A stretch of 64,000 nt of DNA, taken from the NCBI GenBank assembly GCA_036002485.1, contig DASYTI010000019.1, positions 11,990 through 75,989 on the forward strand, in the 5' to 3' direction. A program made the position numbers and the translations under genes. Origin of the DNA: Candidatus Methylomirabilota bacterium. GTDB lineage: Bacteria > Methylomirabilota > Methylomirabilia > Rokubacteriales > CSP1-6. Within the stretch, counting starts at the first letter, position 1, and each line of letters starts with the position of its first letter. Under the pieces are notes generated by a model. The model was not told the origin of the DNA. It ran no database searches and was given only the letters and a program-made list of their open reading frames with translations. This document shows positions 494 through 59,917 of the stretch, piece after piece.

Positions 494-1588
<1,095 letters not shown>

Positions 1589-1697
1589 GGGCGACCTCAC
1601 TCGTTGAGCCGGGATTGGTGGCTACCGCGGGCGGGGCCCGGAAGCCCGCGCGCAGGATACTAGCATAGTTAGGCGATTGTGGGTATCAGTCCCCTGG

Positions 1698-2549
1698 CTA
1701 CCCCTTGACGGAGCCGGTCAGGCCCGTGACGTAGTACTCCACGAAGAACGAGTACACCACGGCCACCGGGATCGAGCCCAGCAGCGCGCCGGCCATGAGC
1801 TGCCCCCAGAAATAGATGTCCCCGCGGATCATCTCCGACACCACACCCACGGGGACCGTCTTCTTTTCCGGCGACGAGAGGAATACGAGCGCGTAGATGA
1901 ACTCGTTCCAGGACAGCGTGAAGGCGAAGATGCCCGCCGAAAGGATGCCGGGGACGGCGATCGGGAAGATGATCCTGATCATGGCCCCGAAGCGCGTCGC
2001 GCCGTCGATGCGCGCGCACTCCTCCAGCTCCTTCGGGATGGTCTTGAAGTAGGCCATCAGGAGCCAGGTGCAGAACGGGATCAGGAAGGTCGGATAGGTC
2101 AGGATGAGCGCCCACGGCGTGTCGCCCAGCTGGAAGGCACGGATGATGTTGGCGAGGGGGATGAACAGGAGCGTCGGCGGCACGAGATAGGTCACGAAGA
2201 TCGCCGTGCCGAGGGTGCCGGCCATCGGGAACTTGAGCCGGCCGAGCGCGTAGCCGGCCAGGAGCCCGCAGAAGAGCGAGATGGCCGTGGACGCGCAGGC
2301 TATGAAGAACGTGTTCCAGAGCCAGTGCGGGAAGGTAGTCTTGGCGAAGAGGTCCTGGAAGTGCTCGAGCGTCGGGTGGAGCGTCCAGAAGGGCGCGTTG
2401 TTGGCCGCCCGCCAGGACCGGTAGAGCTCGGAGTCGGGGCGGATGGCCGTGATCAGCATCCAATAGAAGGGGAAGAGCGTCCCGATCACGAAGACCGTGA
2501 GGGGGATATAGAAGTACACCCACCGCTTCCACTTCTTCTCGATGACCAA
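1698..2549 (-). CDS. Carbohydrate ABC transporter permease (MalG/UgpE-like)
   Basis: 283 aa, 6 TM, with the EAA-loop motif region (ARIDGATRFGAMIRIIFP) typical of binding-protein-dependent permeases. Confidence 0.88.
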   Translation of the reverse strand: MVIEKKWKRWVYFYIPLTVFVIGTLFPFYWMLITAIRPDSELYRSWRAANNAPFWTLHPTLEHFQDLFAKTTFPHWLWNTFFIACASTAISLFCGLLAGYALGRLKFPMAGTLGTAIFVTYLVPPTLLFIPLANIIRAFQLGDTPWALILTYPTFLIPFCTWLLMAYFKTIPKELEECARIDGATRFGAMIRIIFPIAVPGILSAGIFAFTLSWNEFIYALVFLSSPEKKTVPVGVVSEMIRGDIYFWGQLMAGALLGSIPVAVVYSFFVEYYVTGLTGSVKG

Positions 2550-2552
2550 GTG

Positions 2553-3521
2553 CTAAGCCCCCTCGAGCCTGCGGACGTACCGGAGCTGGAGCCAGACCAC
2601 GATGAAGAGGACCGGGAGCATGAAGAGCGAGATCGCGGCGCCCTCGCCCAGGAGGCCCGTGGCGATGCCGATCTGGTAGGCGTAGGTCGCGAGGAGGTGC
2701 GTGGCGTTGGCCGGGCCGCCGCCCGTCAGCACGTAGATAAGCTGGAAGTCGGAAAAGGTCTGGATGATCGAGAACACCACCACGACCACGGTGACGGGCT
2801 TGAGAAGGGGCCAGGTCACGTGCCAGAAGCGGTACCAGCCGTTGGCGCCGTCGAGCGAGGCCGCCTCCTGAAGGTCCGGGCTGATGGTCTGCAGCCCGGC
2901 CAGCAGCGTGAGGGCGAAGAAGGGCATGCCGCGCCAGGTATTGACGACGATCGCGCACCACATGCCGTATGTGCCATCAGAGAGGAAGGGCAGCTTGGTC
3001 GTAATGAAGCCGGTCTGGTAGAGAAGCCAGTTGAGCACGCTGAAGGTTGGATCGAACATCCAGCGCCACGCGAAGGTGCTGAGCACGGTCGGCACGATGA
3101 AGGGCAGGAGCATGGTCGCCCGCACGATGCGCTTGCCGCGGAAGCTGCGGTTGAGCAGGAGGGCGAGCCACATCCCGAGAGCCAGCTTGAAGATGGTGGC
3201 CCAGAACGTGTAGAAGAACGTGTTCCCGAAGGCCGTCCGGAAGATCGAGTCATTCCACGCCTTGACGAAGTTGCGAAACCAGACGAACTCGCCGACATTG
3301 CCCACGCTGGTGTTCGACAGCGACAGCCATACCCCCATGACGAATGGATAGGCGATGAACAGCCCGAGCAGGAGAACCGCCGGGGCGAGCAGGAGCGTGG
3401 CGAGCAGGCGCTCGCTCTCGAGCCAGCGGGTCATGCGCCCGGGGCTGGACGCCCCCGCCCGGGGCAGCGCCGTGGCGATCCCCGCGGTGCCCCCAGATCC
3501 TCCGGCGATCGGTTCCTTCAA
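2553..3521 (-). CDS. Carbohydrate ABC transporter permease (MalF/UgpA-like)
   Basis: 322 aa multi-TM permease with EAA loop (EAASLDGANGWYRFWHVTWP). 3 bp from the downstream permease. Confidence 0.85.
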   Translation of the reverse strand: MKEPIAGGSGGTAGIATALPRAGASSPGRMTRWLESERLLATLLLAPAVLLLGLFIAYPFVMGVWLSLSNTSVGNVGEFVWFRNFVKAWNDSIFRTAFGNTFFYTFWATIFKLALGMWLALLLNRSFRGKRIVRATMLLPFIVPTVLSTFAWRWMFDPTFSVLNWLLYQTGFITTKLPFLSDGTYGMWCAIVVNTWRGMPFFALTLLAGLQTISPDLQEAASLDGANGWYRFWHVTWPLLKPVTVVVVVFSIIQTFSDFQLIYVLTGGGPANATHLLATYAYQIGIATGLLGEGAAISLFMLPVLFIVVWLQLRYVRRLEGA

Positions 3522-3525
3522 CCGA

Positions 3526-4881
3526 CTACCCGTAGATCTTCCCTAGCTCGTCCGCCGCCCACTTGACCGCGTCCTCGGCCTTGGTGCCCTGGCAGGCCTT
3601 GGCGTACATGTCGGTCAGGATGTACTTCGAGTAGACCTCGGTGGCCCGGGCCGACGGCGGCCCCGCGTAGCCGATCATCCGCGAGGCGGCGGCGGCCTGG
3701 CGGTAGATTCTCATCGGCGCGTCAATGGTGTTCCACATCGGACTCTGCTCCCAGTACTTCGTCGAGCCGACCGAGAAGCCGTCGGCGACGAGGAACCATT
3801 TGCCGAACTGCTCCTTGCCGTGGAGCCACTTGAGGAAGTCCTTGGCGAGCTTCGGGTTCTTGCCGTACTTCATCACGGCATGAGAGAAGGCCACGTGGTA
3901 CGCCCACGTCCCCGCCGGCCCGTTCGGGATGGGCCCATGCTGGATGTCCTTGACCATGGGCTCGCCCTTTTCGTCCTTGATCTTGTCCTGGCCCCGCTTG
4001 GCCGCGATGTAGATGCTGGCCCCGTTGAGGGTGGCCGCGATCTCGCCGGAGAGGAAGGCCCGGTTGTTGCTCGTGTCGTCCCAGGCGAAGCCGCCCTCGT
4101 CGCAGGCGTCCTTCCAGAAGGCCTGCATGAACTTGACCGCCTCGACGGTCTCCTTGCTGTTCAGCACGACCTTCTTGCCGGGTTTGTCCACTTCCGCGCC
4201 GCCGAAACCCCAGGTGAGGGGATAGGCCCAGGCCGGAGCGTCACCGAAGGTGTGGCCGAGCGTCTGGCCGATGGGGTGGCCCTTCTTCTTGAGCTTCATC
4301 CCGACCTGGCGCAGCTCGTCGAGGGTCTTCGGCCACGACGTCTGGCCCACCTCGTCGAACCACGACTTCCGGTAGGCGAACTGGAGCCCCACGATGCCGT
4401 GGGGCAGGGCGAGCCAGCGCTTGCCGTCCTTGGCGGCCGCCTCGGACTGGGCGTAGTAGCCGCCCTGGTCCTTGCCCTGCCACTCGCCCAGATCGGTCAC
4501 GTCCACGAGGCCGTTCTGGTAGAGGTGCGGCCAGTTGTGCAGCATCTGGATGATGTCCGGTCCCGCCCCCGACTGCATGGCGGCGGTGATGCGTGGCTGC
4601 AGGTCGTTGCCGTTGATGAACTCGAAGACGACCTCGGCGCCGAGCGCCTTCGAGGCCTCGGGCGCCTGGCGCTTGAGCTCTATGTCGCAGGCGGGGATGA
4701 AGTCGACCCAGCGCAAGATATTGAGCCGCGTCCCCTGCGCGAAGGCCGGCGCGCGGCGCGCCGCGAGTATTCCCTCGATACCGGTGGCCGCCATCCCCAC
4801 CGCAGCCGACCCCGCGATGAACCGTCGACGCGTCACGCCGGACGTTACGCCGTGCCCATCGAGTTCTGGATTTTGCATCAT
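3526..4881 (-). CDS. ABC transporter extracellular solute-binding protein (family 1, sugar-type), Tat signal
   Basis: MMQNPELDG..VTRRRFIAGSAAVGMAATG twin-arginine signal. AAGGAG RBS 6 nt upstream of the ATG at 4881. SBP-family fold throughout. Confidence 0.85.
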   Translation of the reverse strand: MMQNPELDGHGVTSGVTRRRFIAGSAAVGMAATGIEGILAARRAPAFAQGTRLNILRWVDFIPACDIELKRQAPEASKALGAEVVFEFINGNDLQPRITAAMQSGAGPDIIQMLHNWPHLYQNGLVDVTDLGEWQGKDQGGYYAQSEAAAKDGKRWLALPHGIVGLQFAYRKSWFDEVGQTSWPKTLDELRQVGMKLKKKGHPIGQTLGHTFGDAPAWAYPLTWGFGGAEVDKPGKKVVLNSKETVEAVKFMQAFWKDACDEGGFAWDDTSNNRAFLSGEIAATLNGASIYIAAKRGQDKIKDEKGEPMVKDIQHGPIPNGPAGTWAYHVAFSHAVMKYGKNPKLAKDFLKWLHGKEQFGKWFLVADGFSVGSTKYWEQSPMWNTIDAPMRIYRQAAAASRMIGYAGPPSARATEVYSKYILTDMYAKACQGTKAEDAVKWAADELGKIYG

Positions 4882-4957
4882 CGCTCCTTGCCACGCCTCG
4901 CGGCGCTCTTGACCTGCCCCCGTTCGAGCGCCGACTCTGCCGGCGCAATCCGCTCTT

Positions 4958-4998
4958 GGGGGGAGGCTTCGGAAGGGGGGCAAAGCCCCCCTCCGAGT
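4958..4998. repeat. GC-rich palindromic hairpin repeat (REP-like), copy 1
   Basis: tggggggaggcttcggaaggggggcaaagcccccctccgagtt. Directly abuts the stop codon of the minus-strand SBP gene. Near-identical copy at 62019..62060. Confidence 0.7.
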
Positions 4999-6357
4999 TT
5001 AAACTTCATAGATTTTCTTCAGCTCGCCTTCCGCCCACTTCACGGCATCCTCGGCCTTCGTGCCCTGACAGGCCTTCGCGTACATATCGACGATGATGTA
5101 CTTCGTGTAGGACTCCGTGGCCTTGGCCGAGGCGGGGCCGGGATAACCCAGCATCCGGGTCTGGCGCGCCGCCTGGCGGAAGACCTGCAGGGGCTTGTCG
5201 ACCCGGCTCCACATCGGATCATCCTCCCAGGCCTTGGTGGCGCCGACGGTATAGCCCTCGTTCACCTGGAACCACTTCCCGTAGTTCTCCTTCTGGTGCA
5301 TCCACTTGAGGAGTTCCTTGGCCGCCTTCTGGTTCTTCGAGTATTTCATGATCGAGTGCTGGAAGGCGCCGTACAGCGCGAATTGCCCGCCCGGCCCCTT
5401 GGGAAGCAGCGCCTCGTGCTCGATGTCCTGGTACAGGGGCTCGCCCTTCTCGTCCTTGAGCTTGTCCTTCTGCCGCTTGGCCACGATGTAGATGGAGGCG
5501 CCGTTGAGGGTGGCGGAGATGTCGCCGGAGTGGAAGGCGCGGTTGTTGTTCGTGTCGTCCCAGGCCAGCCCGCCTTCGTCGCAGGCGTCCTTCCAGAAGG
5601 CCTGCATGAACTTCACCGACTCGATGGCGCCCTTGCTGTTGATGACGACCTTCTTGCCGGTCTTGTCCACCTCGGCGCCCCCGAAATCCCAGAGGAGGGG
5701 ATAGGCGAAGGTCGGCGGATCGCCGAAGCTGTGGCCGAGGGCCTGGCCCACCGGCTTGCCCTTGGCCTTGAGCTTCTTGCCCACCTCGCGCCACTCGTCC
5801 CAGGTCTTCGGGAACTCCTTGACGCCGATCTCGGCGTGCCAGGACCGGCGGTAGGCGATGGCGTTGCCACCTGTGCCGTGCGGAACGGCCAGCCAGCGAT
5901 TGCCGACCTTCGCGGTGCTGGAGAACACATCGTAGTAGCCGCCCTGCGCCTTGCCGATGGGCTCGGCCACGTCCGAGACGTCCACCAGGCCGTTGGCATA
6001 GAGATGCGGCCAGTTCCAGAGCATCTGGATGATGTCGGCGCCGCTGCCGGACTGGATGGCGGCGGTGATGCGGGCCTGCAGATCATTGGCATTGATGAAC
6101 TCGAACGTGACCTCGGCCCCGAGCGCTTTCGAGGCCTCCGGCGCCTGGCGCTTGAGCTCCACGTCCGCCTCGGGAATGAAGTCCACCCAGCGCAGGATGT
6201 GCACCTTCGTGCCCTGGGCGAAGGCCGGCGCGCGCCGCGCGGCCAGAATGCCCTCGAGCCCCGCGGCTGCGAGGCCCGCCGCGGCGGACCCCGCGATGAA
6301 CCGTCGACGCGTCACGCCGGGAATTGCCGTCTGCCCATCGAGCCCTGGAGTCGTCAT
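4999..6357 (-). CDS. ABC transporter extracellular solute-binding protein, tandem paralog of 3526..4881, Tat signal
   Basis: 452 aa, roughly 65-70% identical to the downstream SBP along its full length (VTRRRFIAGSAAAGLAAAG..., FMQAFWKDACDEGG..., DMYAKACQGTKAEDAVKWA). Confidence 0.85.
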   Translation of the reverse strand: MTTPGLDGQTAIPGVTRRRFIAGSAAAGLAAAGLEGILAARRAPAFAQGTKVHILRWVDFIPEADVELKRQAPEASKALGAEVTFEFINANDLQARITAAIQSGSGADIIQMLWNWPHLYANGLVDVSDVAEPIGKAQGGYYDVFSSTAKVGNRWLAVPHGTGGNAIAYRRSWHAEIGVKEFPKTWDEWREVGKKLKAKGKPVGQALGHSFGDPPTFAYPLLWDFGGAEVDKTGKKVVINSKGAIESVKFMQAFWKDACDEGGLAWDDTNNNRAFHSGDISATLNGASIYIVAKRQKDKLKDEKGEPLYQDIEHEALLPKGPGGQFALYGAFQHSIMKYSKNQKAAKELLKWMHQKENYGKWFQVNEGYTVGATKAWEDDPMWSRVDKPLQVFRQAARQTRMLGYPGPASAKATESYTKYIIVDMYAKACQGTKAEDAVKWAEGELKKIYEV

Positions 6358-6580
6358 CGACCCTCCTCGTCACGCCTGGCGGCGTTCCTCACTGGTCAGC
6401 GTTCGAGCGCCGGATCCGCCGGCGCAACCCGTTTCGAGGCAGTTCTCCTGAACTGGTGAAACCTTGAATGGTCTTGGGGGCATCAAGTGATCTCGAAGTG
6501 GTGAGAAATCCGGCACAAATCGTGTCGCATTTCTAGCAGGAAAAGCGCGCAGTGTCAACGGCGATCGGGCCTCGCCGCCC

Positions 6581-15356: not shown

Positions 15357-15660
15357 GATGGCTCCTAGTCAACTAGCCGGGCGACCTCTTCCAGAGACCA
15401 CACGTGATCCGCCTTCCCGGCTTCCATGGCCGGGGTGACCCGCAGGGGAGCTTGGCAAGCTGTCAGGTCTCGGGGCCTCTCTGGAAGCTTCGCCACGGCC
15501 GGAGTATGCCACAGCTAGGCATGGAGCTTGCCGAGCCTCAGTTTCCAAACTGAGACACTACCCCCGAACCCGCACCGTATAGCTCGGTCATGGTCAGTGC
15601 TTGCGACATCCGAACGCATCTGCTTTACTCATGCGCAACGCGACCTCCGGGGAGGCCTCC

Positions 15661-16875
15661 ATGCGAGCACGACGGCTCTGGTTTTTGGCTACCGCAGCTC
15701 TTGCCCTTGCCCTCTGCGCGGGCGCGGCGACCGCCCAGTCGCCCATCAAGATCGGCGAGATCAACTCCTATAGCGGCATCGGCGCTCCGTTCACGGGGCC
15801 GTACCGCGCCGGCGTCGAGATGGCCGTGGAGGAGATCAATGCCAAGGGCGGCGTCCTCGGGCGCAAGCTCGAGGTCGTCTTCCGCGACGACAAGGGGCAG
15901 CCCGCGGAGGCGGTCAAGCATGCCCAGGAGCTCGTCGAGTCCGAGAAGGTGGCCCTGATCGCGGGCACCTTCCTCTCAAATGTGGGGCTTGCCGTCTCGG
16001 ACTGGGCCAAGCAGAACAAGACCATGTTCGTGGCCGCCGAGCCCCTGACGGAAGCGCTCACCTGGGCCAAGGGGCACGACTACGTCGTCCGCCTCCGCCC
16101 CAATACCTACGAGCAGGGGCGCATGCTCGCCGAGAAGGCGAGCAAGATGAAGTACGTGAAGTGGGCGACCATCGGCCCCAACTACGAGTACGGCAAGCGG
16201 GCCTGGGAGACCTTCCGTGACCGGCTCAAAGAGCTGAAGCCGGACGTGCAGGTGGTGGGCGAGCACTGGCCGACCCTCGGCAAGATCGAACCCGGTCCGC
16301 TCGTCACGGCGATCATGAGCCAGAATCCCGACGCCCTCTACGTCTCGCTCTTCGGCAGCGACTGGCTGGCCTTCGTGCGCGAGGCGCAGAAGCGGGGGCT
16401 CTTCCAGAAGACGTTCGTGGTGGGCATCCTGCTCGGCGAGCCAGAGTACATCGACCCCCTCAAGCTCGAGGCGCCCGAAGGCAATCTCGTGACCGGCTAC
16501 CCCTGGTACGACATCAAGAGCCCGGCGCACCAGGACTGGGTGACGCGCTACACCAAACGGGGCGACAAGCATCCGGTGCTGGGCTCGCTCATCGGCTACG
16601 TCACCTACGTCTCGATCGCGGAGGCGATCAAGAAGGCCGGCGGCACCGACACGGCCAAGCTCGTCCAGGCCTTCAAGGGCCTCAAGGTCGAGACTCCCAT
16701 CGGCCCCATCACCTTCCGGGCCTCGGACGGCCAGTCGACCATGGGCGCCTGGGTGGGCACCACCAAGCTCGATAGCCAGCGCGGCGTGGGGGTCATGGTC
16801 AATCACGAATACATTCCCGGCGAGAAGGTGCTGCCCTCCGACGACGAGGTGAGGAAGCTCCGCCCGGGCTCGTGA
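15661..16875 (+). CDS. Branched-chain amino acid / amide-type ABC transporter substrate-binding protein (LivK family)
   Basis: Signal peptide MRARRLWFLATAALALALCAGAATAQSP, then a Peripla_BP_6-like sequence (IKIGEINSYSGIGAPFTGPYRAGVEMAVEEINAKGGVLGRK). GGGGAGG RBS upstream of the ATG at 15661. Confidence 0.88.
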   Translation: MRARRLWFLATAALALALCAGAATAQSPIKIGEINSYSGIGAPFTGPYRAGVEMAVEEINAKGGVLGRKLEVVFRDDKGQPAEAVKHAQELVESEKVALIAGTFLSNVGLAVSDWAKQNKTMFVAAEPLTEALTWAKGHDYVVRLRPNTYEQGRMLAEKASKMKYVKWATIGPNYEYGKRAWETFRDRLKELKPDVQVVGEHWPTLGKIEPGPLVTAIMSQNPDALYVSLFGSDWLAFVREAQKRGLFQKTFVVGILLGEPEYIDPLKLEAPEGNLVTGYPWYDIKSPAHQDWVTRYTKRGDKHPVLGSLIGYVTYVSIAEAIKKAGGTDTAKLVQAFKGLKVETPIGPITFRASDGQSTMGAWVGTTKLDSQRGVGVMVNHEYIPGEKVLPSDDEVRKLRPGS

Positions 16876-16895
16876 GCTGAAGACCGCCCCCTCAT

Positions 16896-16945
16896 GATCT
16901 CAGCCCTCGCCTCATTCGAGGCGAGCCTCGGCTCGAAGTGCGGCC
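16896..16945 (-). repeat. Single copy of the same ~45-bp repeat family (inverted orientation)
   Basis: ctcagccctcgcctcattcgaggcgagcctcggctcgaa is the reverse complement of TTCGAGCCGAGG..GAGGCGAGGGCTGAG. Confidence 0.6.
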
Positions 16946-17001
16946 CTCTCCCCCGATTGTGGAGAGGATTTCTTGACTCCCTCTCCTCTCTGGGGAGAGG
17001 G
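16944..17001 (+). promoter_or_regulatory. Two stem-loops between livK and livHM; the first has a T-tract (partial terminator or attenuator candidate)
   Basis: The first stem-loop is ccctctc-ccccgattgt-ggagagg followed by atttctt. The second is ccctctcc-tctctgg-ggagaggg, directly before the RBS and GTG at 17023. Confidence 0.4.
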
Positions 17002-17022
17002 GCGGGGTGAGGGGAGCCGCCC

Positions 17023-18867
17023 GTGTCGCTTCTCCCGCTTCTCCTCGTCCAGTTGCTGAGCGGTCTCGCCAACGCGATGTTCCTCTTCCTCATCGCGTCT
17101 GGACTGTCGCTCATCTTCGGGGTCACCCGGATCGTCAACTTCGCCCACGGCTCGTTTTACATGCTGGCGGCCTATCTCACGTACTCGCTCACGGCGGCCC
17201 TGCCCTTAGGGCCCAACGCCTTTTACGCCGCCGCGCTGCTTGCCGCGCTTCTCGTCGCGGGGCTCGGCGGGCTCGTGGAGGCGCTGCTCCTTCGCCGCGT
17301 CTACCGCGCGCCCGAGCTCTACCAGCTCCTGCTGACCTTCGCGCTCGTCTTGATCGTGGCGGATGCCGTGCGCTATCTCTGGGGCGCCGACAACAAGACG
17401 GGGCCCGCCGCCCCAGGTCTGAGCGGCTCCGTGTCCATCGCCGGACAGCTCTTCCCGAGCTATGACCTCGCCGTCATCGTCTTCGGCCCCCTCGTCGCCC
17501 TCGGGCTCTGGGGCCTTTTCCATCGCACGCGCTGGGGTGTCCTGATCCGCGCCGCCACCCAGGACCGCGAGATGGTCGCGGCCCTCGGCGTGGATCAATC
17601 GCGCCTCTTCACGGGCGTCTTCATCCTCGGCTCCTTCCTGGCGGGACTCGCGGGGGCGCTCCAGGTGCCGCGGCTGGCCCTGACCACCGTGATGGACACC
17701 ACCGTCATCGTCGAGGCCTTCGTGGTGGTCGTCATCGGGGGCATGGGATCGGTGTGGGGGGCGCTGCTCGCCTCGCTCCTCATCGGCGTGCTCAACGCCT
17801 TCGGTGTTCTCGTGCTGCCCAAGATCTCCATCGTGCTCATCTTCGTCGTCATGGCCGTGGTGCTGATCGTGAGGCCCTGGGGTCTCCTGGGGCGGCCGGA
17901 GATCCAGCTGCGCGCGGCGGGGGGCGCCGTGGCCGAGGTGAGGCCGTCACGCGCCGGCCGATCATGGAACAAGGCATGGCTCGGGGCCGGAGTCCTGCTG
18001 CTCGCGGCGCTGCCGTGGGCGCTTCCGACCTTCTGGGCGTGGCTCGTCGTGGAGATCTTCGCCTTCGTGCTCTTCGCGGCGAGCCTCCACCTGCTCATGG
18101 GCCTGGGCGGCATGGTCTCGTTCGGGCATGCCGCGTATTTCGGGATCGGCGCCTACGCGGCCGCTCTCCTCCTCAAGCTCGCGAGCTGGCCCATGCCGCT
18201 GGCCTTTCTCGCGGCCCCCCTGGTGGCGGCGCTGGCCGCCGTCGTCTTCGGCTACTTCTGCGTCCGGCTCACGAGCATCTACTTCGCCATGCTCACCCTC
18301 GCGTTCGCCCAGATCGTCTACGCCGTCGTCCATCAGTGGGACGAGGTCACGGGGGGCGACAACGGCGTACTCTCCGTCTGGCCCCCCACATGGCTCGCCT
18401 CTCCCATGCGCTACTATTACTGGTCGCTGGCCGCGACCCTGGGGGGAGTGATCCTGCTCCGCGTGGTCGCCGGTTCGCCGTTCGGCCTCTCCCTGCGGGC
18501 GGTGCGCGACCATGCCCGGCGCGCCGAGGCCGTGGGCATCAATGTCCGGCTGCTGCAGTGGACGGCGTTCATCGTGGCGGGGTTCGTGGCCGGCCTCGGC
18601 GGCGCCGTCTTTGTCTTCCTCAAGGGAAGCGTCTTTCCCGTCTACACCGAGACGCCCATGTCGGTGCAGCCTCTCGTCATGGTCCTGCTGGGCGGGGTGG
18701 GCTCGCCCTCGGGTCCGCTGATCGGCGCTGCCGTGTACAAGCTCCTGGACACCGTGATCACCCGCTACACCGATTACTGGCAGTTCGTGCTGGGCGGCAT
18801 CCTCATCCTCCTGGTCCTGGCTTTTCCCCGCGGCATCGCCGGCGCGCTTCGCCCGAGGCGTCCATGA
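17023..18867 (+). CDS. Fused LivH-LivM type ABC transporter permease (two permease domains in one 614-aa protein)
   Basis: The N-terminal half resembles LivH (GLSLIFGVTRIVNFAHGSFYMLAAY). The C-terminal half resembles LivM (GLGGMVSFGHAAYFGIGAYAAALL). GTG start. Stop overlaps the livG start (ATGA). Confidence 0.8.
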   Translation: MSLLPLLLVQLLSGLANAMFLFLIASGLSLIFGVTRIVNFAHGSFYMLAAYLTYSLTAALPLGPNAFYAAALLAALLVAGLGGLVEALLLRRVYRAPELYQLLLTFALVLIVADAVRYLWGADNKTGPAAPGLSGSVSIAGQLFPSYDLAVIVFGPLVALGLWGLFHRTRWGVLIRAATQDREMVAALGVDQSRLFTGVFILGSFLAGLAGALQVPRLALTTVMDTTVIVEAFVVVVIGGMGSVWGALLASLLIGVLNAFGVLVLPKISIVLIFVVMAVVLIVRPWGLLGRPEIQLRAAGGAVAEVRPSRAGRSWNKAWLGAGVLLLAALPWALPTFWAWLVVEIFAFVLFAASLHLLMGLGGMVSFGHAAYFGIGAYAAALLLKLASWPMPLAFLAAPLVAALAAVVFGYFCVRLTSIYFAMLTLAFAQIVYAVVHQWDEVTGGDNGVLSVWPPTWLASPMRYYYWSLAATLGGVILLRVVAGSPFGLSLRAVRDHARRAEAVGINVRLLQWTAFIVAGFVAGLGGAVFVFLKGSVFPVYTETPMSVQPLVMVLLGGVGSPSGPLIGAAVYKLLDTVITRYTDYWQFVLGGILILLVLAFPRGIAGALRPRRP

Positions 18868-19631
18868 TGACGGACTCGCTGGCGACCGGGCCCGTCCTCG
18901 AGACGCGGGGGCTCTCGAAGGCCTTCGGCGGGGTCCAGGCGGTGGCCGCGGTGGACCTGGCGATGCCGCGCGGCGAGGTCCGGGCTCTCATCGGCCCGAA
19001 CGGCGCGGGCAAGACCACCTTTTTCAATATGCTGACGGGCCAGCTTCGGGCCGACGCGGGCGAGGTGCGCTTCAAGGGCGAGCTTCTCTCCGGCCTTCCC
19101 CCTCATGCGGTATGGCGCCGCGGCGTGAGCCGTACCTTCCAGATCACCGCGACCTTCTCGTCGCTGACCGCGCTCGAGAACATCCAGGTCGCCCTGTAGT
19201 CTCACCGTCACGAGACCTATGCGCTCCTGAGCCGGGCGGCCCGGCTCGAGGTGGGAGCGGCGCGGACGCTTCTGGCTCAGGTCGGGCTCGAGGGGCAGGC
19301 GGACAGGCCGGCGGGGGTGCTCGCCTACGGTGATCTCAAGAAGCTCGAGCTCGCCATGGCCCTGGCCAATGAGCCCGATGTGCTGCTGCTCGACGAGCCG
19401 ACAGCCGGCATGGCTCCGGCCGAGCGCGGCGCCCTGATGGCGCTCACCGAGCGAATCGCGCGCGCGCGCTCCCTCACCGTGCTCTTCACCGAGCACGACA
19501 TGGACGTGGTCTTCTCCGTGGCCGACCGTATCATGGTGCTGCACCAGGGTCGGGTCATCGCCGAAGGCAGCCCCGACGAGGTGAGGGCCGACCCGGAGGT
19601 CCAGCGCGTGTATCTGGGGGATAGCGAATGA
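18864..19631 (+). pseudogene. livG: LivG-type ABC ATPase interrupted by an in-frame TAG at 19197-19199
   Basis: The two track ORFs 18864..19199 (Walker A GPNGAGKTT, Q-loop) and 19251..19631 (signature LAYGDLKKLE, Walker B LLLDEPTAGM, H-loop) are in the same frame, with no other stop between them. The TAG sits where homologs usually have Gln or His after the ENI.VA motif. Confidence 0.75.
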
Positions 19632-19640
19632 GACGCGCCC

Positions 19641-20330
19641 GTGCTGACGCTTGACGGCGTCGAGGCGGCCTACGGACCTTCACGCGTGCTTCACGGCGTC
19701 TCTCTCGAGGCGCGCGAGGGCGAGGTGGTGTCGCTCCTCGGACGCAATGGCGCCGGCAAGTCCACCACGCTCAAGGCCACCATGGGCTTGGTGGATGTCA
19801 TCGGCGGCTCGGTGCGTCTCGACGGCCGAGAACTGAGGGGATTGCCGACCCACGAGATCGCCAGATTGGGTGTGGGCTGGGTGCCGGAAGACCGGCGCAT
19901 CTTCAGCGATCTCAGCGTGGAAGAGAATCTCCTGGTCGGGGCCCGGAGCGCGGGAGGGCAGAGCGTCGATCGCGTCTATGAGCAATTCCCCGCCCTCGGA
20001 CGGATGGCGGCGCGGCGAGGGGGAAGCCTCTCGGGCGGAGAGCAGCAGATGCTCACCGTCGCGCGCACCCTCATGGGCCATCCGCGCATCCTCCTCCTCG
20101 ACGAGCCGTCGGAGGGGCTGGCCCCCGTCATCGTCCAGGCCCTCGGCCAGCAGATCGCCGCGCTCAAGCGGGAGGGCTTGACCATCGTGCTCTCCGAGCA
20201 GAATCTCAAGTTCGCGGCCCGGCTGGCCGATCGGGCCTACATCATCGAGAAGGGCCAGATCCGGTGGGAAGGGCCCATGGCGCGGTTGATGGAAGACGAA
20301 GTCGTCCGCCGCGCGTACCTCACCGTTTAG
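19641..20330 (+). CDS. livF: LivF-type ABC transporter ATP-binding protein
   Basis: Walker A GRNGAGKST, signature LSGGEQQML, Walker B LLLDEPSEGL. GTG start. Confidence 0.88.
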   Translation: MLTLDGVEAAYGPSRVLHGVSLEAREGEVVSLLGRNGAGKSTTLKATMGLVDVIGGSVRLDGRELRGLPTHEIARLGVGWVPEDRRIFSDLSVEENLLVGARSAGGQSVDRVYEQFPALGRMAARRGGSLSGGEQQMLTVARTLMGHPRILLLDEPSEGLAPVIVQALGQQIAALKREGLTIVLSEQNLKFAARLADRAYIIEKGQIRWEGPMARLMEDEVVRRAYLTV

Positions 20331-20339
20331 GGAGCTCGC

Positions 20340-21515
20340 ATGAAGACGCTGATCAAGAATATCGGCGTGATCGTCTCCGGCGACATCGCGCGCCCGCTCC
20401 TCGAGGGCGACAGCATCGCCATCGCCGACGGCCGGATCGCCGCCGTGGGGAAGGGGCTCGAAGATCAGGCCGACACCGTCATCGACGCCAAGGGCAGCGC
20501 GGTGATCCCCGGGCTCATCGATTCGCACTGTCACCCCGTCTTCGGCGACTTCACCCCGCGTCAGCGAACCATGGACTTCATCGAGTCCGGGCTCAACGGC
20601 GGAATCACCACCATGATCTCGGCCGGCGAGGTGCATCTCCCGGGGCGACCCAAGGACATCGTGGGCCTCAAGGCCCTCGCCGTGGTGGCCGCCAAGGCCT
20701 ACGCCAATCTTCGGCCGGCCGGGGTCAAGGTCCACGGCGGGGCGCCCATTCTCGAGCTCGGCCTGGTCGAGGCGGACTTCGCCGAGATGGCCAAGCACGG
20801 CGTCAAGCTGGTCGGCGAGATCGGCCTCGGCTCGGTCAAGACCGGCAAGGACGCGGCGCCCATGGTCCGCTGGGCCAAGAAGCACGGCATGACCGTGACC
20901 ATTCACACGGGGGGGCCGTCCATCGCGGGCTCGAACCCCATCAGCGCCGAGGTCGTGCTCGAGGCGGATCCTCACGTCGTCGGTCATATCAATGGCGGCA
21001 CGACCTCCATGAGCGAGCGCGAGATCGACTCGCTGGTGGCGACAAACATGGCGCTTGAGATCGTCCACTGTGGCAATGGCAAGACGGCGCTGCACACGCT
21101 GGAGCGGGCCACCGAGGCCAAGGCGCTTCACCGCATCATCATCGGCAATGACGCCCCGTCGGGAACGGGCGTGGTGCCCCTGGGCATCGTCCGCGTGATC
21201 GCACATCTCGTCTCGCTGGGCGGGGTGAGCGCGGAGATCGCGATCTGCATGGCCACCGGGAATACGGCGCGCGTCTACAATCTGCCCGTCGGGGTCATCG
21301 CCACCGGCCGCGAGGCGGATCTCTGCATCGTGGACGCGCCCGTGGGATCGGTGGGCAAGACGGCCCTCGAGGCGCTCAAAGCCGGCGACCTCTTCGGCAT
21401 CTCGATGGCCCTCATCGACGGACAGATCAGGATAGGGCGCAGCCGTAATACGCCGCCGGCCGCCCGCGCCGCCGAGGTGATCAAAGGGCACGGCCCCTCG
21501 GGAGGAGGACACTAG
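20340..21515 (+). CDS. Enamidase-like amidohydrolase (metal-dependent amidohydrolase superfamily)
   Basis: The N-terminus MKTLIKNIGVIVSGDIARP...IAAVG and the C-terminal block CMATGNTARVYNL...GREADLCIVDAPVGSV closely recall enamidase (6-oxo-tetrahydronicotinate amidohydrolase) family proteins. Confidence 0.75.
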   Translation: MKTLIKNIGVIVSGDIARPLLEGDSIAIADGRIAAVGKGLEDQADTVIDAKGSAVIPGLIDSHCHPVFGDFTPRQRTMDFIESGLNGGITTMISAGEVHLPGRPKDIVGLKALAVVAAKAYANLRPAGVKVHGGAPILELGLVEADFAEMAKHGVKLVGEIGLGSVKTGKDAAPMVRWAKKHGMTVTIHTGGPSIAGSNPISAEVVLEADPHVVGHINGGTTSMSEREIDSLVATNMALEIVHCGNGKTALHTLERATEAKALHRIIIGNDAPSGTGVVPLGIVRVIAHLVSLGGVSAEIAICMATGNTARVYNLPVGVIATGREADLCIVDAPVGSVGKTALEALKAGDLFGISMALIDGQIRIGRSRNTPPAARAAEVIKGHGPSGGGH

Positions 21516-21516
21516 A

Positions 21517-21726
21517 CTTTCGAGCTGAGCCGCTGCCCCGCATTTCGAGTTGAGCGGTGGCCGATGGCCGCCGCGAGACGAGAGCTGAGTTGATTCGAGG
21601 TGAGTGGCGGCCAGCGGCCATCGCGAGACGAGGGCTGAGTGGAGCGCGCAGGCCGCAGTTCGAGCTGAAGGGCGAAGCCCTGAGGCGAGGGCTGAGTGGA
21701 TCAGCGGCGAGGCGAGTGCTGAGACA
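21517..21726 (+). repeat. Tandem array (about 3.5 units) of a ~45-50 bp intergenic repeat, consensus TTCGAG(C/T)TGAG...GCGAG(A/G)CGAGGGCTGAGTGG
   Basis: Units at roughly 21541-21591, 21592-21641, 21642-21698, and a partial unit at 21699-21722. Lies between the amidohydrolase stop and the PF06684 gene start. Confidence 0.75.
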
Positions 21727-21738
21727 AGGAGAAAGATT

Positions 21739-22308
21739 ATGCATATCCGGAAGCTGCTGACCGTGGTGGAGGAGATCTACGAGGACGGCGGGAAGAAGGC
21801 GGCCAGGCCCATCAAGAAGGTCGCGGCCATCGCGGTGATCGAGAACCCCTTCGCCGGACGCTTCGTGGAGGACCTGCAGGAGCTCGTCAAGACCGGCGAG
21901 GAGCTGGGCGATCTCCTCGGCCGCCGGGCCGTGGCCGCCCTCGGCGCGCCCGCCCATTCCTACGGCAAGGCCGCCATCGTCGGCGAGCAGGGCGAATACG
22001 AGCACGCCGCCGCCATCCTTCACCCTACCCTGGGCGCTCCCTTTCGCGCAGCGGTGGGCGGGGGCCAGGCCATCATCCCGTCGACGAAGAAACTTGGCGG
22101 GCCCGGCGCGACCATCGACGTGCCGCTGCACTACAAGGACGCGGCCTTCGTCCGGACTCATTTCGACGCGATGGAGGTGCGCCTGGGGGACGCTCCGCGC
22201 GCCAACGAGATTCTCGTCGCCCTCGTCGTCACGGATGGAGGCCGGCCTCACCCTCGCGTGGGAGGCCTGACCGTCGACGAGGCCAAGAAAGAGGACGGGT
22301 TGAGATGA
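21739..22308 (+). CDS. PF06684 (amino-acid-synthesis / DUF1185) family protein
   Basis: MHIRKLLTVVEEIYEDGGKKAARPIKKVAAIAVIENPFAG. GGAG RBS. The in-frame upstream part of the track ORF is a tandem repeat array, not protein. Confidence 0.65.
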   Translation: MHIRKLLTVVEEIYEDGGKKAARPIKKVAAIAVIENPFAGRFVEDLQELVKTGEELGDLLGRRAVAALGAPAHSYGKAAIVGEQGEYEHAAAILHPTLGAPFRAAVGGGQAIIPSTKKLGGPGATIDVPLHYKDAAFVRTHFDAMEVRLGDAPRANEILVALVVTDGGRPHPRVGGLTVDEAKKEDGLR

Positions 22309-23291
22309 AATTCGGACTCCGCATCCCGAGCTTCGCGCTCGGGCCCCAGACGACGACCCTGGCCGAGATGGGCGCCTATCTCCGGCGGGCCGAGGACCTG
22401 GGCTTCGATTCCGCGGTCAGCATCGATCACCTGCTGCAGACCCCGCCCGCCTATGCCTGCACCTGGCTCGAGCCCGTGGCGCTCCTCTCCGCGCTGGCGG
22501 GCGTGACGCGCACCATCAAGCTCGGCACCATGGTGCTGGTGCTGCCTTTGCGCAATCCCGCCTACTTCGCCAAGGAATGGGCGACCCTCGATCTCCTGTC
22601 GGGCGGCCGCAGCATCCTCGGGGTCGGGGTGGGCTGGCACGAGGAGGAGTTCGGGCTCATGGGCATCCCGCACAAGGAGCGGGGGCGCCGCATGGACGAG
22701 ATGCTGGAGCTCGTGACGGCGCTCTGGGCCGGCGACAACGTCACGTATGCCGGCAAGTACTACCAGGTCAAGAACCTGACCATCGATCCCAAGCCGGCCC
22801 AGAAGCCGCACCCGCCGATCTGGATCGGCGGCGGCAGTCAGCCCTTCGAGAAGGTGTACGGCCAGACCGTGACGAACATCGATCCCGTGCTCATGCGGAT
22901 CGCCAAATACGCCAAGACCTGGGTGCCTCACTCCTCCGCCACGGCCGACATGGTCAAGGACGACTGGGACAAAATCCAACGCTTCATGGTGGGGCTGGGC
23001 CGAAAGCCCGACGACATGACGAAGGTCTATTCGAATTTTGTGTACGTGCTGAAGAAGGGCGAGAAGCCCGAGGTGGCGGCGCCCCACTTCGAAGTCTACT
23101 CGGGCATGGACTTGCCCTACTGGCAGGAATACTACCTTCTGGGCGAGGCCGAGCCGGTGGCCGAGAGGATCCGCGCCAAGGTTGCCTCTCTGGGCGGCTG
23201 CGAGCACATCGTGCTCAACCCGCTCAACTGGGGGACAGAGCAGCTCGAGCTCCTGGCCGGCGAAGTCTTGCCGCGGGTCGCCAAGCCCTGA
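22305..23291 (+). CDS. LLM-class flavin-dependent oxidoreductase (luciferase-like monooxygenase family)
   Basis: 328 aa TIM-barrel LLM-like sequence (FDSAVSIDHL, GRSILGVGVGWHEEEF). Start overlaps the upstream stop (ATGA). Confidence 0.8.
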   Translation: MKFGLRIPSFALGPQTTTLAEMGAYLRRAEDLGFDSAVSIDHLLQTPPAYACTWLEPVALLSALAGVTRTIKLGTMVLVLPLRNPAYFAKEWATLDLLSGGRSILGVGVGWHEEEFGLMGIPHKERGRRMDEMLELVTALWAGDNVTYAGKYYQVKNLTIDPKPAQKPHPPIWIGGGSQPFEKVYGQTVTNIDPVLMRIAKYAKTWVPHSSATADMVKDDWDKIQRFMVGLGRKPDDMTKVYSNFVYVLKKGEKPEVAAPHFEVYSGMDLPYWQEYYLLGEAEPVAERIRAKVASLGGCEHIVLNPLNWGTEQLELLAGEVLPRVAKP

Positions 23292-23435
23292 CGGCTCAGG
23301 TCGGCGCGTGAGCTCGGCCACGGTGCCGCGCTGAGCACGGCCCCTCGCCTCACCGGCGCGCGCGTCAAGCGCGTCGAGGATCCGCGCTTCCTGACCGGGC
23401 GGGGCGCGTACCTCGACGACCTCCAGATCCCGGGA

Positions 23436-25640
23436 TTGCTTCACGCGGCCTTCGTGCGCAGCGCCCATGCGCATGCCGTGCTCCGCCACGCCGAGGTGGG
23501 TCTCGCCCGAGGGACGCCCGGGGTGGTTGCCGTTCTCACCGCGCATGATCTGGTGGAGTGGGTGAGCCCGCTCGCCCCGCGACTGGAAGGCGGAGGGTTC
23601 TGGCCTACCCGGTGCCCGGCTCTCGCGGTGGATCGGCTTCGCTTCGTCGGCGAGCCGATCGCGACGGTCTGCGCGGTAAGCCCGGGCCAGGCCGTGGACG
23701 CGGCCGAGCTCGTGGCAGTGGATTGCCAGCCCCTGCCCGCGGTTGTTGATGCAGGGTCGGCGCTCGCGGCGAACGCGCCCCTCGTCCATGAAAGCGTCCC
23801 TGGAAATATTCTGTTCCATCGCGACTATCGTCACGGCGACGTCGAGGGAGCTTTCGCGCGAGCGCACGTCGTGCTGGAAGAGCGATTCAGCCATGGACGC
23901 TGCTCGGCGGCGCCGCTCGAGCCCCGCGGCCTCATCGCCTCGTGGGCGGGCGAGCGGCTCACCGTCTGGACGGGCACCCAGGCGCCGCACATCTATCGCG
24001 CGGCCCTTGCTCGCGCGTTCGGCGTGCGTGAGGATCAGGTCCGGGTGATCGTGCCCGATACGGGTGGTGGCTTCGGCCAGAAGATGCACGTGCTCTCCGA
24101 GGATCTCGCCGTGGCTGCCCTCGCCTGGGTGACCGGGCGTCCCGTCAAGTGGATCGAGACACGCCGGGAGAACCTGGCCTGCGCCTCTCAGGCCCGTGAG
24201 GGGCGCGTGGACCTCGAGGCGGCCGCGGATGCGCGTGGCATGCTTCTGGCTCTGCGCGCCCGTGTCGTCTCTGACAACGGCGCATATCACGTCTATCCGC
24301 TGACCGCCGCTCTCGAGCCGCTCGGCATTGCCGGGATCATTCCCGGGCCCTACCGCACGCCGGCCTACGAGTGGGAAGCCATGGGCGTGGCGACCAACAA
24401 GCCGCCCCTGGGCGCCTACCGCGGCGTGGGGATGACCATGGGCGCCTTCGTGATGGAGCGCACCCTCGATCTTCTGGCGGAGCGGCTCCGCCTCGACCCG
24501 GCCGAGATCCGACGCCGCAACCTGGTCCCGCGCGACGCCTACCCCTTCAGGTCGGCGGCGGGCTTTCTCTATGACAGCGGTGACTACCCGAAGGCGCTCG
24601 AGATGGCTCTGGAGCTGGCCGACTACGAGGGCCTGAAGCGCGAGCGGGAACATGGACGCGCGCGCGGGCGTCTCCGCGGCGTGGGGATTTCCTGCTACAC
24701 GGAGTACACGAGCATGGGCTCGGCGACCTTTCGGAGCCGCGGCATGAGCGAGGTGCCCGGCCACGAGGCGGCGCGCGTCTCCATCGAGCGGGACGGCGCC
24801 GTGCATTGCCGCCTGACCATGCCGTCTCAGGGACAGGGACACGCCACCACGGTGGCCCAGATCGTGGCCGACGAGCTCGGCGTGCCGCTCGAGAGCGTGG
24901 TGGTCAGCCAGCCGGACACCGACACGACGCCGGCAGGCAGCGGCACCTTCGCGAGCCGAGGGGCGGTGGTCCAGCGGGGCGCGGCCGGCGCCGCGGCCGT
25001 CTCGCTCCGCCAGAAGGTGCTCGATCGGGCGGGAGCGCTCCTGGAAGCAAATCCCGCTGATCTCGAGCTTCGCCACGGTCGGGTGACCGTCCGAGGCGTG
25101 CCCGACCGCGGCGTGACGGTGGCCGAGGTCGCCGGCGCGGCCGGCGAGGGGACGCTCGCGGTGACGGAAGAGTTCGATCCGCCCGGACCGACGTTCTCGG
25201 GCGCCGTCCATGTCGCCTCCGTGGAGGTCGACGCCGAGACCGGGCGCGTCGTGCTCCACCGCTACATCGTCGTCGAGGATTGCGGCCCGGTCATCAATCC
25301 CGTCATCGTCGAGGGCCAGATTCACGGCGCGCTGGCCCAGGGAATCGGCGAGGCGCTGGGCGAGCGGCTCGTCTACGACGAGTCGGGGCAGCTCTTGACG
25401 GGCAGCTTGATGGACTACGCCTTGCCCACGGCGGCCGATCTTCCGCTCTTCACGCTGGGCCACCTGGAAACGCCCTCCCCCCTCACCCCCGGCGGCCACA
25501 AGGGCATGGGCGAGGGCGGCACCATCGGCGCTCCCGCCGCCATTGCCAACGCCGTGGCCGACGCCGTGCAACCGCTCGGCGTGCGTGTGATCTCACTGCC
25601 CATCCAGCCGGAGGTGCTGACCACGGGGGCGGACCGATGA
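23436..25640 (+). CDS. Xanthine dehydrogenase / CO dehydrogenase family molybdopterin-binding large subunit (CoxL/aldehyde oxidase-like). The true start is probably upstream, around 23331.
   Basis: Ald_Xan_dh_C and C2-like sequence throughout. The conserved family N-terminus ARVKRVEDPRFLTGRGAYLDDLQIPG is encoded in frame upstream of the first ATG/GTG/TTG (see findings). Confidence 0.8.
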   Translation: MLHAAFVRSAHAHAVLRHAEVGLARGTPGVVAVLTAHDLVEWVSPLAPRLEGGGFWPTRCPALAVDRLRFVGEPIATVCAVSPGQAVDAAELVAVDCQPLPAVVDAGSALAANAPLVHESVPGNILFHRDYRHGDVEGAFARAHVVLEERFSHGRCSAAPLEPRGLIASWAGERLTVWTGTQAPHIYRAALARAFGVREDQVRVIVPDTGGGFGQKMHVLSEDLAVAALAWVTGRPVKWIETRRENLACASQAREGRVDLEAAADARGMLLALRARVVSDNGAYHVYPLTAALEPLGIAGIIPGPYRTPAYEWEAMGVATNKPPLGAYRGVGMTMGAFVMERTLDLLAERLRLDPAEIRRRNLVPRDAYPFRSAAGFLYDSGDYPKALEMALELADYEGLKREREHGRARGRLRGVGISCYTEYTSMGSATFRSRGMSEVPGHEAARVSIERDGAVHCRLTMPSQGQGHATTVAQIVADELGVPLESVVVSQPDTDTTPAGSGTFASRGAVVQRGAAGAAAVSLRQKVLDRAGALLEANPADLELRHGRVTVRGVPDRGVTVAEVAGAAGEGTLAVTEEFDPPGPTFSGAVHVASVEVDAETGRVVLHRYIVVEDCGPVINPVIVEGQIHGALAQGIGEALGERLVYDESGQLLTGSLMDYALPTAADLPLFTLGHLETPSPLTPGGHKGMGEGGTIGAPAAIANAVADAVQPLGVRVISLPIQPEVLTTGADR

Positions 25641-38545: not shown

Positions 38546-39901
38546 CTAGAAGGAGCGGATGAGGCGCTCCACCCGCTCGTCGTGGCTCTGGAACGGGTCC
38601 TTGCAGAGGATGGTCTCGCGCTCGGGGTCGTTGAGCTTCAAGTACACCCAGTCCACGCGGTAGTCCTTGCCTTTGAGGTTGGCCTGCCGGATGAACTCGC
38701 CGCGCAGCCGCGCGCGGGTGGTCTGCGGCGGGATGTGCTTGGCGCGCTCGATGATGTCGTCGCTGGTGATGCGATCCACCATGTCGTGCTTCACGAGCTG
38801 GAAGTACACGCCCTTGTGCGGCCGGATGTCGTGGTACTGCAGGTCCATGAGCGAGACCTTGGGGTCGCGCCAGGACAGGCGATGCTTCTCCATGAAGGAC
38901 TCGATGATGCGCTTCTTGATGACCCAGTCGACCTCGCGATGCAGCTCCATGGGGTCCGTATGCAGCGCCTCGATGACGTGGGTCCAGCGCCCGAGGACGT
39001 CCTTGGTCACGGGGTCGGCGTCGATCGACTGGACATATCGCGTGGCGTGCTCCAGGTATTCCGTCTGCAGCTGGAGCGGGGTGATGGTGCGCCCATCCTT
39101 GAGCCGGACCGTCTCGCGCAGGGAAGGGTCGTGGCTGATGTCCCGGATGGCCTGGACGGGGGACTGCAGACTGTAGTCCCGGTCGAAGAACCCGTCCTCG
39201 ATCATGTCGAGGATGAGGGCGGTGGTGCCCACCTTGAGGTAGGTGGCGACCTCGGACATGTTCGAATCGCCCACGATGACGTGGAGGCGGCGGTACTTCT
39301 CCGCGTCAGCGTGGGGCTCGTCGCGCGTGTTGATGATGGACCGCGAGGAGGTGGTGGCCCCCGAGATCTCCTGGCAGATATGCTGCGCCCGCTGCGAGAG
39401 ACAGTAGTGGAAGCCCCGGGGGGTCTGCAGCACCTTGCCCGCGCCCGCGAAGATCTGGCGGGTGACGAAGAAGGGGATGAGGCCCTCGGCCAGACGCTGG
39501 AACGACACGTCGCGGCTGACCAGGTAGTTCTCGTGACAGCCGTAGGAGTTGCCGGCGGAATCGGTGTTGTTCTTGAAGAGGAGGATATTGCCGGAGATCC
39601 CGTCCTCGCGAAGCCGCTTCTCCGCCTGATGCAGGAGATCCTCGACGATGCGCTCGCCCGCCTTGTCGTGGATGACCAGGTCGGCGATGTCGTCGCACTC
39701 GGGGGTCGCATACTCGGGATGGAAGCCCGTGTCGAGATAGAGCCGCGCCCCATTCTCGAGGAAGACATTGGCGTTCCGCGCCCCCGGGATGACCTTCTCG
39801 AAGAGGTAGCGGGCGACGTTGTCGGGCGAGAGACGCCGCTGGCCGTTGAGCGTGCACGTCAGACCGTACTCGTTTTCCAAGCCGAAGATGCGGCGTTTCA
39901 T
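38546..39901 (-). CDS. pafA: Pup--protein ligase PafA
   Basis: [37 protein letters not shown] matches the PafA N-terminus. Carboxylate-amine ligase fold. Lacks the Dop-specific insertion. Confidence 0.85.
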
Positions 39902-39968
39902 GTGGGCCTCAGCGTAGCAGGGGAGAGGACGGGAGGCAAGGATTGCCTTTGGCCGTCGGGCGGATGCG

Positions 39969-40661
39969 CTACTTGTCGTCGGCGAGGAGCTGATGGAGCA
40001 CGGCGGGAGGGATCCGGCGGAACTTGCGGCGCTCCTTACCGCGGTCGAGCACGGCCACTTCCAGGTCACGCTCGGTCAGGGTTTTGTTCTGGGTCACCAT
40101 GAGGGCCCGAACTCCCAGCTTGACCGCGCCCGAGAAGTCCAGGCCTTCCTGATAGTTGTCCTTGAGATAGCGCCGGATCTCGTCGGACTGCCCACCCATG
40201 GCCGCGTAGTTCTTCTCGTCCTCGATGGTGCCGTCATAGAGGATGTGGTAGATCTCATTTTTGGTGCCGTCGCTGTCGCCCACCTCCACCACCAGCACCT
40301 CGACCTCGAAGGGCTTGATGTCCTGGGTGAAGATATTGCCGAGGGCCTGGGAGTAGGCGTTGGCGAGGGACTTGGCCGTCACGTCCCCGCGGCTGTACGA
40401 GTAGCCTTTGATGTCCGCGTGCCGGACGCCCGCCACTCGGAGGTTCTCGAACTCGTTGTACTTGCCCACGCCCGCGAAGGCAATCCGATCGTAGATCTCC
40501 GAGATCTTGTGGAGCAGGGCCGAGGGGTTCTCGGCCAGGAGCAGGACGCCGTCGCGATACTCGAGGGCCACGATGGCCTTGCCGCGCGAGATGCCCTTGC
40601 GAGCATACTCCGCCTTGTCCTTCATCATCTGCTCGGGCGAGACGTAGTAGGGCAGCGGCAT
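39969..40661 (-). CDS. prcA: Proteasome subunit alpha
   Basis: [33 protein letters not shown] is a canonical bacterial 20S alpha-subunit N-terminus. Confidence 0.9.
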
Positions 40662-41473
40662 CAGCTACCCCCTCGCTCGGCGAGGATGGCTTCGCAGTAG
40701 CGGCGGATCTCCTCGTCGGAAACCTCTCCGAAGCCCGAGCGGGTGATGGTCTTGACCGTGGGATAGATCCCGCGCTGGAGATCCGGCCCCCCCGTGCCCA
40801 GATCTTCGTCGGCCGCGTCCATCAGGGCCTCGATGGACACCCGCACCGCCTCGTCTTTGGACAGGTCACGCTTGAAGCGCTTCTTGAGGGAGTCCCGCGC
40901 GTCCTTGCCCCCCGAGCCTTGGGCGAAGTAGTCGGTCTCCTCGTACCGGCCTCCCGTGACGTCGTACTTGAAGAGGCGCCCCACCCCCGCGCGCTCGTCG
41001 AAGCCCGCGAAGATGGGCACCACCACGAGGCCCTGCATGGCCAAGGGCAGGTTCATGCGGATCATCTGGCCGAGCTTGTTGGCCTTGCCATCGAGCGAGA
41101 GATTCTCACCCTCGACCTTCTCGTAGTGCTCGAGCTCGGTCTGGAAGAGACGCGCCATTTCCATGGCGGGCCCCGCCGCGCCCGCGATGCCGATACCAGA
41201 GAGATCGTCCGACCTGAAGATCTTTTCAATGCGACGGGAGGCGACCTGGTACCCCTCGCTGGCCTGGCGGTCGCCTGCCATGATCACGCCGTCGCGGTAT
41301 CGGAGGGCGAGAACCGTGGTGCCGTGGGGGACGGTCGGGGGACTATTCGTCTCCCTCGGCACGTCCTCGCCCTGAGGAAGTAGGTGAGGCGCCGAGTGTC
41401 GCAAGACGTCCGCGAAGCTCGAGGTGGCGTACCCGAAGAACACGCCTTCCCAGCGGCTGGGCTTGTCGTTCAC
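40661..41473 (-). CDS. prcB: Proteasome subunit beta with propeptide
   Basis: About 52-aa propeptide followed by catalytic Thr in GTTVLALRYRDGV. GTG start overlaps the dop stop (GTGA). Confidence 0.88.
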   Translation of the reverse strand: MNDKPSRWEGVFFGYATSSFADVLRHSAPHLLPQGEDVPRETNSPPTVPHGTTVLALRYRDGVIMAGDRQASEGYQVASRRIEKIFRSDDLSGIGIAGAAGPAMEMARLFQTELEHYEKVEGENLSLDGKANKLGQMIRMNLPLAMQGLVVVPIFAGFDERAGVGRLFKYDVTGGRYEETDYFAQGSGGKDARDSLKKRFKRDLSKDEAVRVSIEALMDAADEDLGTGGPDLQRGIYPTVKTITRSGFGEVSDEEIRRYCEAILAERGGS

Positions 41474-42969: not shown

Positions 42970-43006
42970 AAGTCCCCCGGACGCCCTCGTCGAGATGAGA
43001 ACAAAC

Positions 43007-43039
43007 GGCGGGAGGGGGCGATAGCGCTCCCCTCCCGCC
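43007..43039 (-). terminator. Intrinsic-terminator-like hairpin immediately after the mpa stop
   Basis: ggcgggagggg-gcgatagcgct-cccctcccgcc forms an 11-14 bp GC stem. On the mpa transcript it is followed by GUUUGUUCUC. Confidence 0.5.
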
Positions 43040-43046
43040 GCGGCGC

Positions 43047-57738: not shown

Positions 57739-57751
57739 CGGAGGGTAAGGG

Positions 57752-59893: not shown

Positions 59894-59917
59894 TCCGCCG
59901 CCCCTCGCCGTTCCGCC

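Follow-up and report, generated by a model that had tools for sequence, protein, structure and literature searches.

A gene for an ABC transporter ATPase of the LivG/UrtD type, located at 18864..19631 on the forward strand of the window (the whole stretch of 64,000 nucleotides analysed here), was found to be interrupted by one in-frame amber codon at a position where every near-identical and related sequence carries a sense codon. This configuration probably represents a CAG>TAG nonsense allele of very recent origin, which would make the gene a nascent pseudogene and affect one Liv-type importer. A sequencing or consensus error is the less likely reading, and decoding of the TAG or a functional split gene is far less likely still.

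Organization of the interrupted ATPase gene

The interval 18864..19631 (+) comprises 255 codons and ends with a terminal TGA. Its translation revealed only one internal stop, the TAG at 19197-19199, which corresponds to codon 112, and the gene would encode a protein of 255 aa if this codon were CAG. The first-pass annotation had described a single in-frame amber lying between the Q-loop and the signature motif, and this description was borne out by both the translation and the positions of the motifs. When the stop was represented by X, the Pfam domain ABC_tran (2.4e-28) was recognized over residues 29-181, across codon 112, and the LivG-type C-terminal motif BCA_ABC_TP_C (PF12399, 1.8e-12) over residues 230-254. 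The residues surrounding the interruption are NIQVAL-X-SHRHETYALLSR, in which X is the stop.

As defined by translation and alignment, the 5′ part of the gene (18864..19199, +) runs to the premature stop, yields a product of 111 aa, and contains the Walker A motif GPNGAGKT (residues 44-51; 18993..19016, +) and the Q-loop glutamine (Q93; 19140..19142, +). The 3′ part (19200..19631, +) contains the signature-equivalent LAYGD (residues 153-157; 19320..19334, +), the Walker B motif (residues 174-178; 19383..19397, +), the H-loop histidine (H211; 19494..19496, +) and, at its end, the BCA_ABC_TP_C tail. Thus, the set of ABC ATPase motifs is complete in the coding sequence, but it is divided by the stop at codon 112.

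The preferred explanation involves a single C>T transition at 19197, which would have converted Gln112 (CAG) into an amber codon. Translation would then end after 111 residues, releasing a fragment that keeps the Walker A motif and the Q-loop. Judging from the architecture of ABC ATPases, a fragment devoid of the signature motif, Walker B and the H-loop would not sustain ATP hydrolysis in the ABC dimer, and, as the importer needs both of its ATPase subunits, it is predicted to have lost all or almost all activity in this strain. Moreover, early termination may exert a polar effect, lowering the expression of livF, which lies close behind. The event would be very recent and private to the lineage, and would not constitute a programmed feature.

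Codon 112 in conspecific contigs and in homologs

Contigs of the same population were found through the exact look-up of the neighbouring amidohydrolase, in three JGI metagenomes. Two of these contigs, L088 (99.83% identical over 11,542 bp) and L089 (99.91% identical over 8,659 bp), showed no indels relative to the window and presented C at 19197, and the same-population contigs with this base came from JGI metagenomes 3300036863 and 3300036861. In both L088 and L089, the gene was called as uninterrupted, with a product of 255 aa (P0121) that was recorded on four contigs. Codon 112 was the sole difference between P0121 and the translation of the window, so the 3′ part is fully conserved at the protein level. 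CAG was also found at codon 112 in two more distant relatives, L002 (95.2% nucleotide identity) and L001 (93.7% nucleotide identity, with the same gene order). Base 19197 is therefore T in the window and C, giving CAG, in four of the four comparable sequences and, because L002 and L001 carry CAG as outgroups, these alignments indicate that T is the derived state, private to the window sequence.

Homologs retrieved by the protein search numbered in the thousands, with lengths of about 249-255 aa and no interruption, and those most similar to the ATPase belonged to soil metagenomes and to MAGs labelled Methylomirabilota or Rokubacteria. When 131 close full-length homologs were aligned, the site of the stop was occupied by Q in 76, F in 35, S in 14, L in 4 and H in 1, and it was mostly L or I at 80 more distant loci from species-representative genomes; the residues seen at position 112 in homologs were Q, F, S, L, H, I, Y, M, A, V and T. 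It had been proposed from the sequence that homologs usually carry Gln or His at this point. This holds as to Gln for the nearest relatives, but His is rare (1 of 131) and the position is variable. None of the 80 homologous loci from other species harbored an in-frame stop, and no conserved in-frame UAG was found at this site among the 131 proteins and 80 loci, since every homolog presented CAG or another sense codon. A pattern scan for the TAG allele returned no matches in genome contigs and one match in metagenome contigs, which carried CAG, and neither the 111-aa fragment nor LivF gave a match in exact look-ups.

Some database entries resembled products of a disrupted gene. The 90%-identity cluster contained members of 91 and 105 aa (P0125, P0127, P0131 and P0134) starting at the Met of the open reading frame found at 19356 in the window. 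A recurrent disruption among relatives was considered and rejected, given that L086 and L087 proved to be scaffolds in which stretches of N lie immediately 3′ of codon 112, with Q at the site itself, and that the contig of P0127 begins inside the gene. The gaps, at about 2470..2482 in L086 and about 2014..2091 in L087 (equivalent to about 19229..19285 in the window), were found at the same spot in independent ENA scaffolds, and this spot falls where the protein varies most (residues about 120-145). It seems that strain heterogeneity breaks assemblies in this region, leading to spurious 91-aa 'MALAN...' gene calls in protein databases. On the 27,546-bp contig of P0125 (JGI 3300041966), livG and livF are called only as fragments of 91 aa and 149 aa, respectively, in an otherwise intact operon, and these short calls are probably another scaffold-gap artefact.

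Age of the change and reliability of the sequence

Relative to L001, dN/dS was 0.19 before the stop (codons 1-111) and 0.18 after it (codons 113-255), and it ranged from 0.07 to 0.16 in neighbouring genes. Because the two values match, there has been no decay following the stop, and purifying selection has acted on the 3′ part over essentially all of the measurable divergence, up to a very recent time.

The remaining differences between the window and the conspecific contigs were also classified. Relative to L089, eight differences were found, corresponding to seven synonymous third-position changes and the nonsense change, with no missense change, no intergenic change and no indels. Relative to L088, there were 20 differences, including 14 synonymous, four missense bases (which fall in three codons of a tRNA synthetase gene), one intergenic and the nonsense change, again with no indels. 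Apart from the nonsense change, these differences look like real polymorphism filtered by selection and not like random errors. Private synonymous alleles were also found in the window, at 15990, 19169 and 19742, and mark it as a distinct haplotype.

The C>T change at 19197 destroys a CTGCAG site. A base-calling artefact linked to a methylation motif was consequently considered and rejected, as CTGCAG occurs intact 26 times in the window against two occurrences of CTGTAG and two of CTACAG, with no systematic conversion.

Alternative explanations for the amber codon

The first-pass annotation had left a nonsense mutation, a sequencing error and read-through or suppression as options, and the finding of CAG in all near-identical and related sequences narrowed these to the first two. 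According to the error hypothesis, the organism has CAG, and the T results from a base-calling or polishing artefact or from a mixed population collapsed into one consensus. The presence of C in all four independent comparable sequences would be expected under such an error, as would the failure of pattern scans and of exact look-ups of the 111-aa fragment to find the T allele anywhere else, and the gene is otherwise undamaged; the fact that the nonsense change is the only non-synonymous difference relative to L089 fits an isolated error as well as it fits a fresh mutation. However, no indels were found in 11.5 kb compared with independent assemblies, the other differences are overwhelmingly synonymous, unlike random errors, and the intact CTGCAG sites speak against a systematic miscall. 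In addition, real nonsense pseudogenes in a bacterial genome outnumber the nonsense-creating errors in a polished assembly. An error thus keeps perhaps one chance in a few, and we infer that the T at 19197 is a real allele rather than a wrong base call.

Decoding of the TAG, either by a suppressor tRNA (such as a supE-like tRNA-Gln with a CUA anticodon), by pyrrolysine insertion or by near-cognate read-through, would allow some or all ribosomes to produce full-length LivG. Given the variety of residues accepted at position 112, the protein would probably be active whichever amino acid was inserted, and the part downstream of the stop is intact. Nevertheless, this explanation is very improbable. 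TAG is a frequent genuine stop in the window, where about 45 predicted genes end with TGA (22), TAG (17) or TAA (6), so that efficient suppression would extend many proteins, those of livF and relA/spoT among them. The termination of about 17 of 45 genes, including livF, by TAG excludes a codon reassignment and makes an efficient suppressor implausible, and the TAG at 19197 provides no evidence of an altered genetic code. The site is not one of conserved recoding either, as strains 99.9% identical to the window encode Gln with plain CAG and no interrupted homolog was found in 80 species. In E. coli, a U after the stop, as in the TAG-T found here, constitutes a strong termination context, which also counts against read-through. 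The likeness to amber suppression or pyrrolysine decoding is restricted to an in-frame UAG in a conserved gene; unlike in those systems, the UAG is absent from relatives, TAG is a common true stop, and no suppressor tRNA was seen within the window, in which neither tRNA genes nor Rfam matches were found; as a screen for pyl genes, the Pfam scans covered 24 of the approximately 45 predicted genes of the window. No publication connecting Rokubacteria to stop-codon recoding emerged from a full-text literature search. There is equally little chance that the amber is real and partly read through, by a near-cognate or suppressor tRNA, to give a low level of active LivG, in which case one importer would be naturally tuned down by leakage instead of being fully knocked out. 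The least credible explanation is a functional split gene, in which the two halves would be made separately, with re-initiation at GTG 19251 or ATG 19356, and would reassemble into an active nucleotide-binding domain. Both in-frame codons do follow the stop, but no recognisable Shine-Dalgarno sequence was seen upstream of either of them by reading, and a restart would delete residues 112-129 (GTG) or 112-164 (ATG), the latter with loss of the signature motif. Furthermore, none of the 80 homologous loci is split likewise, and the 91-aa database entries that resemble split products are artefacts arising from N-gaps in scaffolds or from the ends of contigs. Other adjacent pairs of open reading frames sharing one frame in the window (1698-3542, 3526-6369 and 57749-60289) were found to be separate genes and not interrupted ones.

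The share of TAG among the stops of the window, about 38%, was observed in a genome of about 67% GC, for which it seems high.

The recent nonsense allele, as the preferred explanation, shows no feature distinguishing it from ordinary strain-specific nonsense pseudogenes, with which it shares a single-base CAG>TAG change confined to one lineage, intact sister strains and the lack of secondary decay; events of this kind are well known and common. At most, then, one strain of an uncultured soil population of Methylomirabilota/Rokubacteria type would have just lost one Liv-type importer, which makes it a small example of strain-level gene inactivation. For annotation purposes, the two open reading frames are best joined in a single entry marked as a pseudogene or possible error, instead of being recorded as two short proteins.

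Family assignment and operon context

By its domain content and operon context, the interrupted gene encodes a HAAT-family ATPase of the LivG/UrtD type, but not an assignable ortholog of LivG or UrtD. The name livG, given to it in the first-pass annotation, is supported by these same features as a family-level label only, because the product scored below both NCBIfam equivalog cut-offs, with 223 bits against 362 for LivG (NF008449) and 231 bits against 304 for UrtD (TIGR03411). MJ1267 matched the ATPase over residues 10-253 (E 2e-36). The combination of ABC_tran and BCA_ABC_TP_C is the same as that found in the HAAT LivG/UrtD ATPases, such as those of E. coli LivJ-HMGF and UrtABCDE and MJ1267 (PDB 1G6H/1G9X/1GAJ), and the order of binding protein, LivH/M permease, LivG and LivF is likewise that of HAAT operons. 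In contrast to these systems, the two permeases are fused here as one protein of 614 aa, the operon is syntenic with amidohydrolase, AA_synth and Mo-hydroxylase genes, and the ATPase gene is interrupted by a stop.

The operon, whose gene order is the same in L001 and L088, includes a Peripla_BP_6 binding protein, a BPD_transp_2 permease and a second, LivF-type ATPase. The gene of the periplasmic substrate-binding protein (15601..16875, +; PF13458, 1.1e-74) probably has its true start internally, at about 15631-15661, and the syntenic genes in L001 and L088 encode 404-414 aa. It is followed by the fused LivH+LivM-type permease (17023..18867, +; 614 aa), which matched BPD_transp_2 in two stretches (1.7e-76) and which, in NCBIfam, presented a UrtB-like N-terminal half and a UrtC/LivM-like C-terminal half. 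Fusions of LivH and LivM permeases were also observed in relatives (608-614 aa). The start of livG overlaps the permease stop (ATGATGA), and livF begins 9 nucleotides past the livG stop. The latter gene, encoding an intact LivF/UrtE-type ATPase (19641..20330, +; ABC_tran, 6.7e-31), ends with a genuine TAG, and its 229-aa product was called alike in L001, L083 and L088.

Downstream of livF lie genes for an amidohydrolase (20340..21515, +), an AA_synth protein (PF06684; 21739..22308, +), a luciferase-like monooxygenase (22305..23291, +) and a molybdopterin hydroxylase (23436..25640, +). These conserved operon neighbours are kept in L001 and L088 over the region corresponding to 15601..25640 (+) of the window. 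Neither ATPase of the operon reaches the equivalog cut-offs for LivG/F or UrtD/E, and the importer may therefore have a substrate other than branched-chain amino acids or urea, for example an amide or an N-heterocycle. A literature search on Liv transporters of Rokubacteria retrieved nothing useful.

Other loci in the window

A Pup-proteasome gene cluster was observed on the reverse strand (38546..44876, -). It comprises an Mpa/ARC-type AAA ATPase gene (43047..44876, -), two Dop/PafA-type genes of the Pup-ligase family (41470..42969 and 38546..40069, -), and a pair of genes for proteasome subunits (40661..about 41470 and 39969..40661, -). Two clearly paralogous genes for sugar-type solute-binding proteins, arranged in tandem (3526..4983 and 4999..6357, -), were also found upstream of a pair of permease genes (1698..3521) and of a gene for a MalK-type ATPase (494..1600), and the two binding-protein genes look like a tandem duplication.
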